Positions 19,829 to 49,115 of a stretch of 64,000 nt of DNA are shown here, one piece after another. The notes under the pieces are model-generated. The model saw nothing but the letters and a program-made list of their open reading frames with translations, was not told the DNA's origin and did no database searches. How positions within the stretch are numbered: the stretch's first letter is position 1; each line of letters starts with the position of its first letter. Made by a program: the position numbers and the translations under genes. Source of the DNA: a virus; UHGV virus genome UHGV-0098755. The stretch is one strand, 5' to 3'.

Positions 19829-20299
19829 TTAATCATGTTTCCACACCCCATCGGTATTTGACCAAAGCCGCTGATTATCTGATCCTCGCCACAGCTTTTT
19901 GGTCGGAAGATTTTTCTCATACTTCCCATCAATAATAACATCAACATATTTAAGCATTTCTAGTTGTTTAATATCTTCAAACTTGTATCCTGTCCACAAC
20001 CAAATGCTTTTATTCGGATAAAGATTTTTTACCGTTTGAACAATGCAATGAACAACATCTCGGTTATCAGGATAAAGAGGGTCTCCTCCAGTTATAGTTA
20101 ATCCTTCTATATAATCATTATTCAAACATTCAATTAATTGTTCTAGTGTTTCACCAGTGAATGGAATACCATTTCTAGCATTCCATGTTGATTTATTATA
20201 ACACCCTTCGCATTTATGCAAACAACCTGTAACGAAAAGAACAACCCTGCAACCAGGGCCATTCACAAAATCGCAAGGATAAAATCTATCATAATTCAT
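19829..20299 (-). CDS. nrdG: Anaerobic ribonucleotide reductase activase NrdG (radical SAM)
   Basis: 156-aa ORF with cysteine cluster GCLHKCEGC. Confidence 0.9.
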   Translation of the reverse strand: MNYDRFYPCDFVNGPGCRVVLFVTGCLHKCEGCYNKSTWNARNGIPFTGETLEQLIECLNNDYIEGLTITGGDPLYPDNRDVVHCIVQTVKNLYPNKSIWLWTGYKFEDIKQLEMLKYVDVIIDGKYEKNLPTKKLWRGSDNQRLWSNTDGVWKHD

Positions 20300-39905: not shown

Positions 39906-40225
39906 TATTCTTTAAATCTAATCAATTTATTCATAGACTTTGAAACTTCTGCACGAACCTCATGTAGATTTTTGAGCTGTTCAAGACGCTGCTCATAGTA
40001 AGCAATTTCATCTTCTTCGAGACAGTCCTGTGAATCTTCTTTAAGATAACGTGCATAGTCCTGGAAAGCGTTACGAACTACTTCCTGGAAGTCATCAAGA
40101 CTTTGAATTTTCTTAGGAGCAACAGATACACGACGAGGGGCAGTATAATACTCATAACCAAACCCTGCGCTTAATTGAGCCATTAGTATTTTTCCTCTGG
40201 TTGGAACACAGCACGGCAAGCCCAC
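39905..40225 (-). CDS. Hypothetical protein (vs.3 slot)
   Basis: 106-aa ORF. Confidence 0.45.
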
Positions 40226-40485
40226 ATACTGGCTTCTTTGAGTTTCGTTTTAGCAATAGTTAACTGATCGAGGCTTTCGGCGTAATTCTTCGCGAGTTCA
40301 TCATCTTCACAGCTATCAAATGCTTCCCAAAATTCATCGTATAAAGCATCAAAGATAAGTCCTAAACGAACTTCAGCGTCTTTAATAGCATTTACTTTAC
40401 CGATTTTTTCGTCGGTATGTGGCTTATAACCTTTAATATCTTCAATCATATTTGACTTCCTCACCAGTACATAAATCGTATTCAA
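40183..40485 (-). CDS. Hypothetical protein (vs.4 slot; candidate Acb2-type position)
   Basis: 100-aa ORF; positional inference only. Confidence 0.4.
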
Positions 40486-40663
40486 CTAAACGAATAGGTT
40501 CATGAATGCCATATCCTTGAACAGAAATTTCTGTCGTAGGATAAATTCCATTAATATCACCCATGTTCCATGCTTCGTTAAATTGCTGTTCGCCTGAATT
40601 ACTAAACCATTCGGCGAAAGCATTTAGCACATCTTCAGAACCTTCAATAATTATCTTTGCCAT
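40442..40663 (-). CDS. Hypothetical protein (vs.5 slot)
   Basis: 73-aa ORF. Confidence 0.4.
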   Translation of the reverse strand: MAKIIIEGSEDVLNAFAEWFSNSGEQQFNEAWNMGDINGIYPTTEISVQGYGIHEPIRLVEYDLCTGEEVKYD

Positions 40664-41025
40664 TACAAACTCTCGGTAAAGGTACGAGCGATAACGTCGC
40701 GCTGCTGTTCCGGAGTCAGAGAGTTAAAGCGAACTGCATAACCGGATACACGGATGGTCAGCTGCGGATATTTTTCCGGATGCTTAACTGCATCTTCCAG
40801 AGTTTCGCGACGCAGAACGTTAACGTTCAGGTGTTGACCACCTTCAATTTTAACTGTAGGTTGTGTTTCAATTTCAATTTCACGGGCATGCAAACCATAG
40901 AAAATTTCTGGGTCTACAAAAGAGTCCTCTTTAAAGGTTTTAGAAACGATAATTCGTGCTTGAATACCATCTTCAAAATAAATAGTACCTTTATGTGTGC
41001 CTTCAAGAATTTGATATGCTTTCAT
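40663..41025 (-). CDS. Autonomous glycyl-radical cofactor (GrcA/YfiD-like)
   Basis: 120-aa ORF; C-terminal half almost identical to E. coli GrcA as recalled, including glycyl-radical motif [13 protein letters not shown]. Confidence 0.9.
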
Positions 41026-41032
41026 ATAAACC

Positions 41033-41362
41033 TCAATTAGAAAATAAATTTATCCAAGATTGTTCTTTAATTAAAAATGGCTCAGAATCATATGCCATTA
41101 AACTTTGGGTGATTAGTCCTTTAAAAGGCCCATCAATAAATTCCATGGTAAAATATGGAATTTTATTCATTAGCCGTGCATTAGGAGCAGTGCACAAAAC
41201 TCTGCATCCTTTGAATACGCCTTTTTGTAATTTGTATTGCTTAGGATAAAATTCGCTCAAAATGTTATTTTTTGCCAAAATTTCAAAATGATTCACCAAT
41301 TTATTTTTAATAGTTTTTGGTGAAAAATAAAGATATTCGAAAAGCTGAGTGTCTGTCATCAT
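41033..41362 (-). CDS. Hypothetical protein translationally coupled to upstream P-loop gene
   Basis: ORF 41033..41413; likely start at ATG 41360-41362 overlapping upstream TGA (ATGA). Confidence 0.45.
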
Positions 41363-41946
41363 TGCATTCCGATTACGAAAAACTGTGGACGAGTAATACC
41401 ACCAATGCAACATTTAATATTACAGCAGCAGTGTACAGTGTCAATATGGACACTATAAATCTTATCCATATCAGGAGATTTGACAGGCTCATCAATTATA
41501 TATAAAATTCGCGAAAGCTTTAAACCTCTGAACTTGCTTCCTTTATTACCGATAAAACTGCGCACAGAATCAGTAAATAAACGAAAACGTATATCATCAT
41601 TAGAATAACGCGAAAATTCCTTTTTGATGCTATTTGCAGAAATTTTAGCGTAAGCTGAAGTATTAGAAAGAACAATAACTGTTCCACCGTCATACAACCA
41701 ATTAGCGGCAAAATTAGTTACTGCAGTTGATTTACCGGATTGACGTCCACCATCTAGTCGAAGTGTGCAATACTGTTTGAGTAAGTCTTCAAATGGTGGG
41801 ATATAATCGTTTTTACAAATTTCTTCTACTCTAGCATCAGAATGGTGTGTAAAAGCATTCATCAGGGATAGATAAGGACCAGTTAAAAATGTTCTCATTT
41901 TGTTATCTCTAAATTTGGGCCATTCCGTGGCGCGTGAATTGTCCAT
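41359..41946 (-). CDS. P-loop NTPase with cysteine-rich N-terminal segment
   Basis: 195-aa ORF; Walker A GGRQSGKST, Walker B ILYIIDEP; cysteine cluster HCCCNIKCC near the N-terminus. Confidence 0.5.
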   Translation of the reverse strand: MDNSRATEWPKFRDNKMRTFLTGPYLSLMNAFTHHSDARVEEICKNDYIPPFEDLLKQYCTLRLDGGRQSGKSTAVTNFAANWLYDGGTVIVLSNTSAYAKISANSIKKEFSRYSNDDIRFRLFTDSVRSFIGNKGSKFRGLKLSRILYIIDEPVKSPDMDKIYSVHIDTVHCCCNIKCCIGGITRPQFFVIGMQ

Positions 41947-47397: not shown

Positions 47398-47455
47398 TAT
47401 CAGTAGTTGATAGTTGTATAGTACCATGGAATGACAAGGGTGTAAACAGTTTTGT
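47398..47455 (-). promoter_or_regulatory. T4-type early promoter
   Basis: GTTTACACCCTTGTCATTCCATGGTACTATACAAC with conserved upstream block. Confidence 0.7.
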
Positions 47456-47576
47456 GAAAAAATTTTTAAAAAGTTTTAGGGAATTCTAGGGCAAAGAGGG
47501 GCAATTAAAGGATAGGATAATATATTAAAAGGGTAGAAACTAAATGATGCCTAGAGAGGTCCAGAAAGGCCTAGAT

Positions 47577-47607
47577 ACTAAAAAGCCCCAACCTTTCGGT
47601 CGGGGCT
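47577..47607 (-). terminator. Intrinsic terminator at the end of the tRNA/stable-RNA transcription unit
   Basis: GCCCCGACC-GAAA-GGUUGGGGC hairpin followed by UUUUU. Confidence 0.65.
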
Positions 47608-47619
47608 AAGCCTTGCGGC

Positions 47620-47915
47620 AACCTTGTCGGGGTTCCACCTGCTAAGGCAAGTGTTTGTACGAAACGCCGGGATTCGAACCCGGTTATTAAGTAGTTGACG
47701 CTACTCAATATTTTTAAAAGGCCATATCTCGACCATATCCGAACGTTCCGTCAAAAACGCTACTCGGCTTACGGCAAAGATATTTCCTCGAATCGATAAT
47801 TCTGTGCGCCGTTTCTGCTGTGATGTAAGGGGACATTAACAGATCGTAAAGATTTGTTAATGCCAGTCCTTACCCAGGGAACATCAGTCCGACGACTTAC
47901 CGGTAGCGACCCGGT
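47620..47915 (-). ncRNA. Candidate small stable RNA region (tRNA-like T-arm, no ORF)
   Basis: About 300 nt without ORFs next to the tRNA cluster; contains CCGGGTTCGAATCCCGG T-arm-like hairpin and other stems; ends at a terminator hairpin. Boundaries not defined. Confidence 0.35.
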
Positions 47916-48287: not shown

Positions 48288-48363
48288 TGGTCGAGGCAGT
48301 AGGGATCGAACCTACGACCCAGGACTTAGAAGGTCCTTGCTCTTCCTTCTGAGCTATGCCTCG
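48288..48363 (-). tRNA. tRNA-Arg (anticodon UCU), CCA encoded
   Basis: Hand-folded cloverleaf: acceptor CGAGGCA/UGCCUCG, anticodon loop CUUCUAA, T-arm GGUUCGAUCC. Confidence 0.85.
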
Positions 48364-48367
48364 TATT

Positions 48368-48442
48368 TGGCGGACGTGATAGGATTCGAACCTATAACCA
48401 ATCGCTTAACAGGCGATCGCTCTGCCATTGAGCTACACATCC
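48368..48442 (-). tRNA. tRNA-Asn (anticodon GUU), CCA encoded
   Basis: Acceptor GGAUGUG/CACGUCC, anticodon stem AUCGC/GCGAU, loop CUGUUAA, T-arm GGUUCGAAUCC. Confidence 0.8.
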
Positions 48443-48446
48443 AAAT

Positions 48447-48534
48447 TGGTGGGGAGTGATGGAGTCGAACCACCCGAGTCGCAATGACAATGGATTTACA
48501 GTCCACACCGCTACCTCTACGGGATAACTCCCCA
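48447..48534 (-). tRNA. tRNA-Tyr (anticodon GUA), type II with long variable arm, CCA encoded
   Basis: Acceptor GGGGAGU/ACUCCCC, anticodon loop CUGUAAA, long extra arm, T-arm GGUUCGACUCC. Confidence 0.8.
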
Positions 48535-48543
48535 AATTAATTT

Positions 48544-48617
48544 GGTGGCCCTGGGTGGAATTGAACCACCATCTGGCGATTATGAGTCGCTTGCTTGAAC
48601 CTTCCAGCTACAGGGCC
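48544..48617 (-). tRNA. tRNA with anticodon CAU (Ile-lysidine type or Met), CCA encoded
   Basis: Acceptor GGCCCUG/CAGGGCC, anticodon loop CUCAUAA; T4 tRNA-Ile is known to carry CAU. Confidence 0.75.
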
Positions 48618-48618
48618 T

Positions 48619-48694
48619 TGGTGCTGATTGACGGAATCGAACCGCCGACCTTCTCATTACAAGTGAGTTGCTCTACCTACTGAGCTAAATCAGC
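48619..48694 (-). tRNA. tRNA-Thr (anticodon UGU), CCA encoded
   Basis: Acceptor GCUGAUU/AAUCAGC, anticodon loop CUUGUAA, T-arm GGUUCGAUUCC. Confidence 0.8.
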
Positions 48695-48699
48695 AAAAC

Positions 48700-48789
48700 T
48701 GGCGGAGGCGATAGGATTTGAACCTATGAGTCGCCGGAGCGACTGCCGGTTTTCAAGACCGGTGCATTAAACCACTCTGCCACGCCTCC
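48700..48789 (-). tRNA. tRNA-Ser (anticodon UGA), type II, CCA encoded
   Basis: Acceptor GGAGGCG/CGCCUCC, anticodon stem CCGGU/ACCGG, loop CUUGAAA, long variable arm. Confidence 0.85.
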
Positions 48790-48791
48790 AG

Positions 48792-48865
48792 TCTCCATAC
48801 AAGGATTTGAACCTTGGACCTCCTGATCCCAAATCAGGCGCTCTACCAAACTGAGCTACACGGAG
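48792..48865 (-). tRNA. tRNA-Pro (anticodon UGG), CCA not encoded; 2 nt from tRNA-Ser (dimeric precursor arrangement)
   Basis: Acceptor CUCCGUG/UAUGGAG, anticodon stem CCUGA/UCAGG, loop UUUGGGA. Confidence 0.8.
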
Positions 48866-48875
48866 TAAATTAAAT

Positions 48876-48949
<74 letters not shown>

Positions 48950-48954
48950 AAATT

Positions 48955-49041
48955 TGGTGCGAGAAGTGGGACTCGAACCCACAAGGAAATCATTCCGCAG
49001 CATTTTAAGTGCTGTGCCTTTACCAATTTGACCATTCTCGC
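48955..49041 (-). tRNA. tRNA-Leu (anticodon UAA), type II, CCA encoded
   Basis: Acceptor GCGAGAA/UUCUCGC, anticodon stem CAGCA/UGCUG, loop CUUAAAA, long variable arm. Confidence 0.85.
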
Positions 49042-49042
49042 G

Positions 49043-49115
49043 CTGGGAATAAAGGACTCGAACCTTTGCATCTAGCAGTCAAAGTGCTATGCCTTACCAA
49101 CTTGGCTAATTCCCA
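49043..49115 (-). tRNA. tRNA-Gln (anticodon UUG), CCA not encoded; 1 nt from tRNA-Leu
   Basis: Acceptor UGGGAAU/AUUCCCA (U1-A72), anticodon stem UAGCA/UGCUA, loop CUUUGAC. Confidence 0.85.

Follow-up and report, generated by a model that had tools for sequence, protein, structure and literature searches.

Background

Only two "spare parts" for pyruvate formate-lyase (PFL) have been validated experimentally, and these are the bacteriophage T4 protein Y06I and the Escherichia coli protein YfiD, also named GrcA (PMC8683613). In the E. coli enzyme PflB, Gly734 is both the radical site and the site of cleavage by oxygen; residues 61-127 of YfiD have the fold of PFL residues 693-759 and form a structured replacement module, and residues 1-60 are disordered and are required for binding of the cleaved enzyme as well as for efficient activation (PMC8683613). 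According to the summary of Wagner et al. 2001 that is given in PMC8683613, the PFL activase (PFL-AE) puts a glycyl radical on Y06I or YfiD and the activity of the oxygen-cleaved PFL is restored. In T4-like genomes the gene vs.6 was listed among 11 conserved open reading frames (ORFs) of unknown function, and its Gly_radical domain was noted (Nolan et al. 2006, PMC1524935). Host-like metabolic genes with intragenic host-phage recombination are known from cyanophages, namely psbA and psbD (Sullivan et al. 2006, PMC1484495). Here we analyzed the gene vs.6 of the UHGV virus genome UHGV-0098755, whose complete stretch of 64,000 nucleotides (nt) is called the window throughout the text. We take Y06I to be the product of T4 vs.6, partly on the basis of the RefSeq name "autonomous glycyl radical cofactor GrcA" which T4 vs.6 carries.

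The gene and its function are therefore already known, and the present work concerns its structure. It is probable (roughly 0.8) that in this known spare-part gene the segment encoding the structured domain has been overwritten by the grcA gene of the host at least two times and between the same junctions. In the searchable literature no published description of this mosaic or of host-specific tracts was found, and an earlier mention is possible.

Identity of the gene

The ORF at 40663..41025 on the minus strand has an ATG start and a TAA stop and comprises 363 nt, i.e. 120 codons plus the stop. Its product of about 14 kDa has Gly_radical as the sole Pfam domain (residues 60-101, E 2e-18). By BLASTP, residues 61-120 are identical to residues 68-127 of the K-12-type GrcA of E. 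coli (60/60), and in the alignments Gly95, within RVSG95YAV (residues 92-98), is equivalent to Gly102 of GrcA and Gly734 of PflB. The earlier note on this DNA, made from the sequence alone, had proposed a GrcA/YfiD-type autonomous glycyl-radical protein whose last 60 or so residues, RVSGYAV included, are almost identical to GrcA, and this assignment holds with Gly95 at the radical position. Among solved structures the best matches were E. coli GrcA (6OWR, E 5e-42) and residues 697-759 of PflB (E 5e-26), with 49/63 identical residues (about 78%, counted from the alignment) between the latter and the C-terminal 63 residues of Vs.6. A single-sequence AlphaFold2 model had a mean pLDDT (predicted local distance difference test) of 35 and was unusable.

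The window protein and T4 Vs.6 (NP_049730) are identical at 118/120 positions, the two exceptions being T54 (P in T4) and R73 (H in T4). The suggestion that a T4 counterpart serves as a spare part of PFL thus agrees with this alignment and with the function which is summarised for Y06I in PMC8683613. The gene order regB-vs.3-vs.4-vs.5-vs.6-vs.7-vs.8-denV is that of T4 and RB51, in both of which the gene between vs.5 and vs.7 is vs.6. At least 80% of the 363 nt was covered in 745 phage records, mostly of Tequatrovirus and including T2, RB51 and T4, and 488 of the matching records were at least 95% (95-99%) identical to the window gene. A full-length match (residues 1-120, profile positions 1-121; E 5.4e-63) was also obtained to phrog_1209, a family labelled "unknown function" in PHROGs v4. 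On these comparisons the window ORF is identified as a T2/RB51-type allele of T4 gene vs.6.

Mosaic structure of vs.6

The identity to E. coli grcA at nucleotide level, which the earlier note had proposed to check, was found over one segment of the gene. This segment (nt 179-350) matches E. coli grcA at every position (172/172) and has host codons, and upstream of nt 179 the identity of phage and host genes falls to about 50%. When E. coli genomes were searched with the gene, only nt 179-363 were matched (97.8%) and the upstream part gave no match. Almost the whole structured glycyl-radical domain is encoded by this host-identical tract, and the boundary of the mosaic coincides with the boundary of the protein domain. 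The tract was present in 5426/5426 E. coli genomes; the exact 172-mer occurred in many of them and a version with at most one mismatch in 3686, E. coli itself being polymorphic in the tract. One tract codon is CGC in the window and in E. coli K-12 and CAT in T4. At the other end the last four codons have 4 synonymous differences from E. coli and the homology ends at the stop codon, while T4 remains E. coli-identical for about 6 nt further than the window.

The composition follows the same division. The tract has a GC content of 0.50 against 0.35 for the window and 27-35% for the 5′ half, and only 0.7% of all 172-nt segments reach the tract value, the others lying in the tRNA cluster and in a nearby non-coding stretch. 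All Leu codons of the tract are CTG (5/5) and all Pro codons are CCG (3/3), choices that make up 9% and 17%, respectively, in the long ORFs of the phage. Within positions 28500-53499 of the window the tract was the sole match to the E. coli chromosome.

The 5′ half is also related to the host gene, at a much greater distance. Profile-profile comparison by hhalign aligned it with residues 25-66 of host GrcA (probability 91.8%, E 7e-7, 32% identity over 41 columns), with the first 18 or so residues of Vs.6 outside the alignment, and the patches IQI, AR-IV-K, ED and RE-x-hE-x-P-V are common to the phage and host N-terminal halves. The phage-type 5′ half, which begins with MKAYQILEG, is conserved in Tequatro-, Mosig-, Jiaoda-, Pseudoteven-, Slopek- and Krischvirus, and the T5-like phages have at least the MKAYQ start in common. 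Since the 5′ halves of phage and host are homologous and the 3′ half is host-identical, the whole of vs.6 is to be seen as an old grcA-like gene with a 3′ half that seems entirely new. The near identity to the host had been taken in the earlier note as a sign of recent acquisition; this applies to the 172-178 nt of the 3′ tract and not to the 5′ half, which is an anciently diverged phage-type sequence (32% at the amino acid level), and the data are better described by a recent gene conversion, specific to the host, which affected the domain-encoding 3′ half of an old phage gene.

An inverted repeat, AGGTG-GTCAA-CACCT, was observed at 40829..40843 within the first 20 nt of the tract. It is also present in E. 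coli grcA and partly kept in the Klebsiella version described below, and it is probably incidental.

Age and direction of the Escherichia tract

The proportion of synonymous differences (pS) was computed between the window, as a Tequatrovirus, and the Mosigvirus phage mogra. It was 0.47 in vs.8, 0.56 in vs.7, 0.31 in the 5′ half of vs.6, 0.068 in the tract, 0.70 in vs.5 and 0.69 in vs.4, and the tract differed from the 5′ half with a Fisher p of 0.004. As the tract value is so far below those of the flanks (0.31-0.70), the tract must be far younger than the split of Tequatrovirus and Mosigvirus, and as it falls inside the present-day allelic diversity of E. coli it must also postdate the divergence of E. 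coli and its sister species; there are 3 differences in the tract to an allele of Escherichia sp. and 14 to Citrobacter. In a neighbour-joining (NJ) tree of the tract (171 nt), the sequences of Tequatrovirus and Mosigvirus were nested within Escherichia with a bootstrap of 0.99, and monophyly of the tracts of T4-like phages was recovered in 0/300 replicates. The phylogeny of the mosaic is thus incongruent between segments; the breakpoints, as read from the alignments, are sharp, and the tract is younger than the sequence on either side. The direction of transfer indicated by the sequences is from host to phage, because the tract follows the species tree and the composition of the host and is present in all E. 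coli genomes searched.

Klebsiella phages and control genera

A query with grcA of K. variicola gave matches of 95-99% in 108 phage records, which were confined to grcA nt 202-369, and among the matches listed nearly all of these records were Klebsiella phages. The four that were examined (KP179, PSE-D1, Roth01 and AM_K4) all carry a Jiaodavirus-type gene. The 5′ half of this gene is phage-type and 75% identical to that of the window at nucleotide level, while the tract has Klebsiella-type sites, including the codons for LLDAVEH versus LEDAVKH. In Roth01 and PSE-D1 the first 100 nt or so of the tract are identical to an allele of K. pneumoniae, with 95-97% overall, against 86-89% to E. coli, T4 or the window; alleles of the K. 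pneumoniae complex are themselves only 92-96.5% identical to each other in the tract. Both junctions are the same in Jiaodavirus and in the E. coli phages, the left one just before GAAGG (codon 61) and the right one after ACCTTTAC (codon 117).

In the same kind of search with grcA of Salmonella, Enterobacter and Yersinia, the best phage matches were at most 84%, 86% and 81%, respectively, and no near-identical tract was found. On present sequences the tracking of the host is therefore documented for phages of Escherichia and Klebsiella only. In the Pseudoteven-, Slopek-, Krisch- and T5-like groups the encoded C-terminal peptide is nearly unchanged, but the tracts are 72-85% identical to any host of the panel, with many A/T changes at third positions in the Pseudoteven/Slopek group. 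These groups serve as controls, in which a nearly identical peptide exists without nucleotide identity, so constraint at the level of protein or codons does not produce identity to the host.

Two apparent further cases were set aside. The IMG/VR contig L121 (IMGVR_UViG_2706794630_000006), with 91% identity to Yersinia grcA, is a bacterial ung-grcA locus beside P2-like prophage genes and not a phage gene. The phage vB_Kpn_AM_K4 was rejected as an independent event, its gene being of Jiaodavirus type over the full length; the record (L176, PP355766.1) is a Straboviridae entry of 288,685 bp with this gene beside tRNA genes, an unusual length for the gene type, and it may be a composite assembly or an unusually large relative.

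Related genes were also observed outside these genera. In another phage group, the IMG/VR contigs L111-L116 and L123 (32-154 kb) encode a Vs.6-like protein of 133 residues (MQKLKAIQIIDD..., for example at L113:1192-1593), whose tract is nearest to grcA of Haemophilus parainfluenzae in 4/7 contigs (82-86%) and to Pantoea or Yersinia in 3/7 (79-81%). Phages of Pasteurellaceae would accordingly carry the gene as well and might undergo the same process. Vs.6-like proteins with MKAYQ or a close variant at their start occur in T5-like Demerecviridae (L091, cott162) and in Krischvirus (L092, MIZ3), within a total of about 1500 phage records, so the phage-type gene has moved between unrelated phage families.

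Predicted function as a spare part

In the mechanism established with the T4 protein and with YfiD/GrcA, oxygen cleaves the active host PflB at its radical Gly734, the cleaved enzyme is bound by the spare part, and activity returns once PflA has placed the radical on the glycine of the latter. The window protein would work like GrcA, its T4 twin having been tested as such, and its domain is by alignment of the PFL type and not of the ribonucleotide reductase type. The spare part would bind the cleaved PflB, with residues 61-120 of Vs.6 replacing the lost strand, glycyl loop and helix, after which the host activase PflA would install the radical on Gly95 and PFL activity would return. Under the shut-off of host gene expression by T4 the infected cell could presumably make no more GrcA or PflB, and the expression signals of the phage would keep up the supply of the spare part. 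The production of acetyl-CoA/ATP and formate might thereby be sustained through oxygen transients in the micro-oxic gut. Class III ribonucleotide reductases use formate as their reductant, and this could link vs.6 to the phage genes nrdD and nrdG, which lie 19 kb away. The presence of these two genes in the window, as given in the earlier note, was borne out by Pfam, both being on the minus strand (Table 1).

Origin of the mosaic and alternative explanations

In the sequence of events which we favour, an old grcA homolog of the phage lineage supplied the 5′ half, and the 3′ 172-178 nt were replaced from host grcA by homologous recombination (gene conversion), the donors being E. coli for Tequatrovirus and Mosigvirus and the K. 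pneumoniae complex for Jiaodavirus. The simplest mechanism would be homologous recombination of host chromosomal DNA with the replicating phage genome, in which crossovers occur only where the two genes are sufficiently alike. An analogous process is the rescue of T4 markers from cloned homologous DNA. A host-like tract, once acquired, may act as a homology island and offer perfect homology for the next conversion of the marker-rescue type from each new host. We lean slightly towards the further proposal that vs.6 is a standing hotspot, in which the domain segment is repeatedly overwritten by grcA of the current enterobacterial host, with traces at the level of alleles in both the Escherichia and the Klebsiella phages, and the N-terminal half is never replaced.

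Several other explanations were weighed against this conversion of an old gene. Host reads or a chimeric assembly could have put E. coli sequence into the phage contig, and an abrupt GC step with perfect identity to the species of the propagation host is what such an artefact would look like; the same mosaic is however present in T4, T2, RB51 and hundreds of independent isolates among the 745 records, no break occurs in the reading frame and unrelated assemblies have identical junctions, so that we give practically no weight to it. That host grcA was picked up recently as a unit would account for the 60/60 residues and 172/172 nt of the 3′ half but not for a 5′ part of 178 nt with only about 50% identity (32% in the encoded half), conserved as phage type in at least six T4-like genera and with its MKAYQ start in T5-like phages, nor for homology that stops at the stop codon with no host flanks in the alignment, and this explanation is most unlikely. 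A single ancient acquisition, in which purifying selection and codon constraint alone have kept the identity to the host, would be in keeping with the near invariance of the C-terminal 60 residues across the phages and hosts compared and with the strong codon bias of grcA. It is nevertheless very improbable, because there are 0 differences over about 57 codons when host species differ by 8-14% in the tract and K. pneumoniae-complex alleles by 3.5-8% from one another, because other phage genera with the same protein sequence are 15-28% away from every host of the panel, and because the CTG and CCG codons of the tract are minor ones in the phage and the Klebsiella phages carry Klebsiella-type synonymous sites. 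With respect to function, Vs.6 could instead be a spare part or regulator of the phage NrdD, or act in nucleotide metabolism, as the window also contains the genes of NrdD and NrdG and a role in nucleotide metabolism was proposed from the common Pfam domain (Nolan et al. 2006, PMC1524935). This candidate was rejected for want of significant similarity between Vs.6 and the window NrdD (best BLASTP E 5.8), and with about 78% identity of Vs.6 to PflB 697-759, 100% to GrcA 68-127 and the rescue of PFL by T4 Y06I reported biochemically in the summary of PMC8683613, it is to be regarded as quite unlikely.

The alternative nearest to repeated conversion is that one conversion took place per host genus and the allele then spread among co-infecting phages; Tequatrovirus and Mosigvirus have the same junctions and nearly the same tract, and T4-like phages recombine readily with each other. 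We hold this for possible but doubtful, in view of three observations which are suggestive of separate events. Two phages isolated on E. fergusonii have A24 and T39, i.e. 2/3 of the sites that mark a non-coli Escherichia allele (L003); a Ser codon of Roth01 is of K. variicola type and a Pro codon of PSE-D1 and KP179 is of K. pneumoniae type; and pS between two Jiaodaviruses is higher in the tract (0.31) than in the 5′ half (0.13). The C/T variation at tract position 39, each variant of which is a perfect match to a different E. coli allele, was also considered as a sign of separate donors and was downgraded, as other phages have G or AT at this site.

Some points weigh against repeated host conversion of a functional spare part, and they are collected here. 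The C/T change at position 39 may be a recurrent mutation, one converted allele could have spread by phage-to-phage recombination, and the tracts do not distinguish many conversions within the E. coli phages from one conversion plus spread. The clade of Jiaodavirus with K. variicola has a bootstrap of only 0.47 in the NJ tree of 171 nt, and the screen for host-identical tracts covered one 25-kb part of the window (28500-53499). Matching to the host may be adaptive or may be a neutral consequence of homology. The function of the window allele is carried over from the T4 protein, from which it differs by 2 residues, and the benefit to the phage, with the formate-NrdD link, is our inference. On the curated GrcA equivalog model of NCBIfam (TIGR04365), Vs.6 scores 154.6 bits over residues 20-120, under the cut-off of 170, and E. 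coli GrcA scores 234 bits; the low score is due to the divergent N-terminal half. The models NF008341 and NF038360, for GrcA2/GrcA3 of about 80 residues, gave 106 and 94 bits on residues 59-120 or so, under both cut-offs. By curated sequence thresholds Vs.6 would thus be placed in a phage-specific sub-family that differs in its N-terminal half.

Neighbouring genes and other features of the window

The positions of vs.6, its segments and other features of the window are given in Table 1. The putative ribosome-binding site (RBS) of vs.6 overlaps the TGA stop of vs.7 (41035..41033), and the TAA of vs.6 overlaps the ATG of vs.5 in the sequence TAATG (ATG at 40663..40661), and these overlaps suggest that vs.6 is translated within a tight vs.8-vs.3 operon. 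The GAGAG that results from the synonymous changes in the last four codons was considered as the RBS of vs.5 and rejected, as T4 has GAAAG there. Between 39300 and 43000 there were 11 promoter-like sites against 11.7 in shuffled sequences; there is no excess in this interval and no promoter is claimed.

The nrdD gene of the window is a single uninterrupted ORF. T4 nrdD (sunY) carries a group I intron, and the window gene would then be an intron-less allele, like that of T2. The vs.4-position gene is marked by its domain as a putative sponge for cyclic nucleotides of the T4 Vs.4/Acb2 type, directed against the cyclic oligonucleotide-based antiphage signalling system (CBASS). The vs.8 product has a weak match to the ATPase region of the terminase large subunit (phrog_2, E 2e-6).

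The tRNAs of the cluster are Arg-tct, Asn-gtt, Tyr-gta, Met/Ile-cat, Thr-tgt, Ser-tga, Pro-tgg, Gly-tcc, Leu-taa and Gln-ttg. Of these Leu-taa, Arg-tct, Gly-tcc and Pro-tgg read A-ending codons, in contrast to the host-type CTG and CCG of the vs.6 tract. The region at about 47450..47900 is without an ORF of at least 50 codons and contains one of the only three places of the window where a 172-nt segment reaches 50% GC (starts 47528-47598). It had no match to any Rfam family and is a possible counterpart of the stable RNAs C/D of T4, which lie beside the tRNA cluster.

Table 1. Location of vs.6, its segments and other features in the 64,000-nt window
Feature	Position	Strand	Basis or remark
vs.6 (Y06I) coding sequence, predicted autonomous glycyl-radical "spare part"	40663..41025	-	ORF, Pfam, PHROG phrog_1209, RB51/T4 annotation
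Phage-type 5′ half of vs.6, codons 1-59	40849..41025	-	about 50% nt identity to E. coli grcA; profile-profile homology
Host-identical tract of vs.6, gene nt 179-350, codons 60-117	40676..40847	-	172/172 identical to E. coli grcA
Phage-type 3′ end of vs.6, last four codons and stop	40663..40675	-	alignments, ORF list
Radical glycine codon GGT, Gly95 in RVSG95YAV	40741..40743	-	sequence and alignments to GrcA and PflB
GAGG Shine-Dalgarno, putative RBS of vs.6, 5 nt upstream of ATG	41031..41034	-	sequence; RBS role inferred
vs.4-position gene, two ORFs downstream of vs.6	40183..40485	-	Pfam PF24729 Acb2/Tad1 hairpin domain, E 1.4e-19
vs.8	41362..41901	-	Walker-A-like GGRQSGKST; own family of unknown function, phrog_1488
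nrdD, class III (glycyl-radical) ribonucleotide reductase, 605 residues	20296..22113	-	Pfam NRDD, E 6e-171, and Gly_radical
nrdG, radical S-adenosylmethionine (SAM) activase of NrdD	19829..20299	-	Pfam Fer4_12, E 2e-48, and Radical_SAM
Cluster of 10 tRNAs	48288..49115	-	ARAGORN and Rfam agree

Significance

The gene itself adds nothing new, and it is its evolutionary anatomy which is possibly worth following up. In a strictly lytic phage whose DNA is modified, a stretch of 172 nt cannot be told apart from present alleles of E. coli, and a sister genus on Klebsiella has the Klebsiella version between the same junctions, which makes natural recombination from host to T4-like phage measurable and could provide a marker of recent host use. 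The mosaic divides Vs.6 into a host-matched catalytic module and an N-terminal half that has evolved in the phage and may be optimised by it for recognition of damaged PFL. If the proposal of a standing hotspot is true, the tract would be a self-renewing homology island, possibly keeping the spare part matched to PflA and PflB of the host, and lytic T4-like phages would carry in it a molecular record of the hosts that they have used recently.

Comparison with known systems

The T4 protein Vs.6/Y06I is the closest system, with the same gene, the same position and the same host-identical 3′ tract as in the window, at a distance of two residues. GrcA of E. coli (YfiD, PDB 6OWR) is likewise a stand-alone glycyl-radical protein of about 14 kDa with a detectably homologous N-terminal half; in Vs.6 this half is shorter by 7 residues, with an identity of only about 32%, the protein belongs to the phage family phrog_1209, and it would be expressed from a phage operon, whereas grcA of E. 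coli has its own promoter. The C-terminal domain of PflB (PDB 1H16/2PFL, residues 693-759) is the part that the spare part replaces and has the same RVSGYAV loop, but there it is fused to the 10-stranded barrel of an enzyme of 759 residues, while Vs.6 stands alone. The proteins of GrcA2/GrcA3 type, of about 80 residues, have the glycyl-radical domain in common with Vs.6, and their models are without the N-terminal half of about 60 residues.

The nearest conceptual precedent of the vs.6 mosaic may be cyanophage psbA, of which vs.6 would be the enterobacterial counterpart. In both cases, if the parallel is drawn correctly, the phage has a copy of a damage-prone host protein (D1 there, the glycyl loop of PFL here) with patches exchanged with the host. 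Apart from the other protein and the other ecosystem, vs.6 differs from psbA in that its patch is one fixed segment, bounded by identical junctions in two phage genera and with up to 100% identity to present-day alleles of the host.

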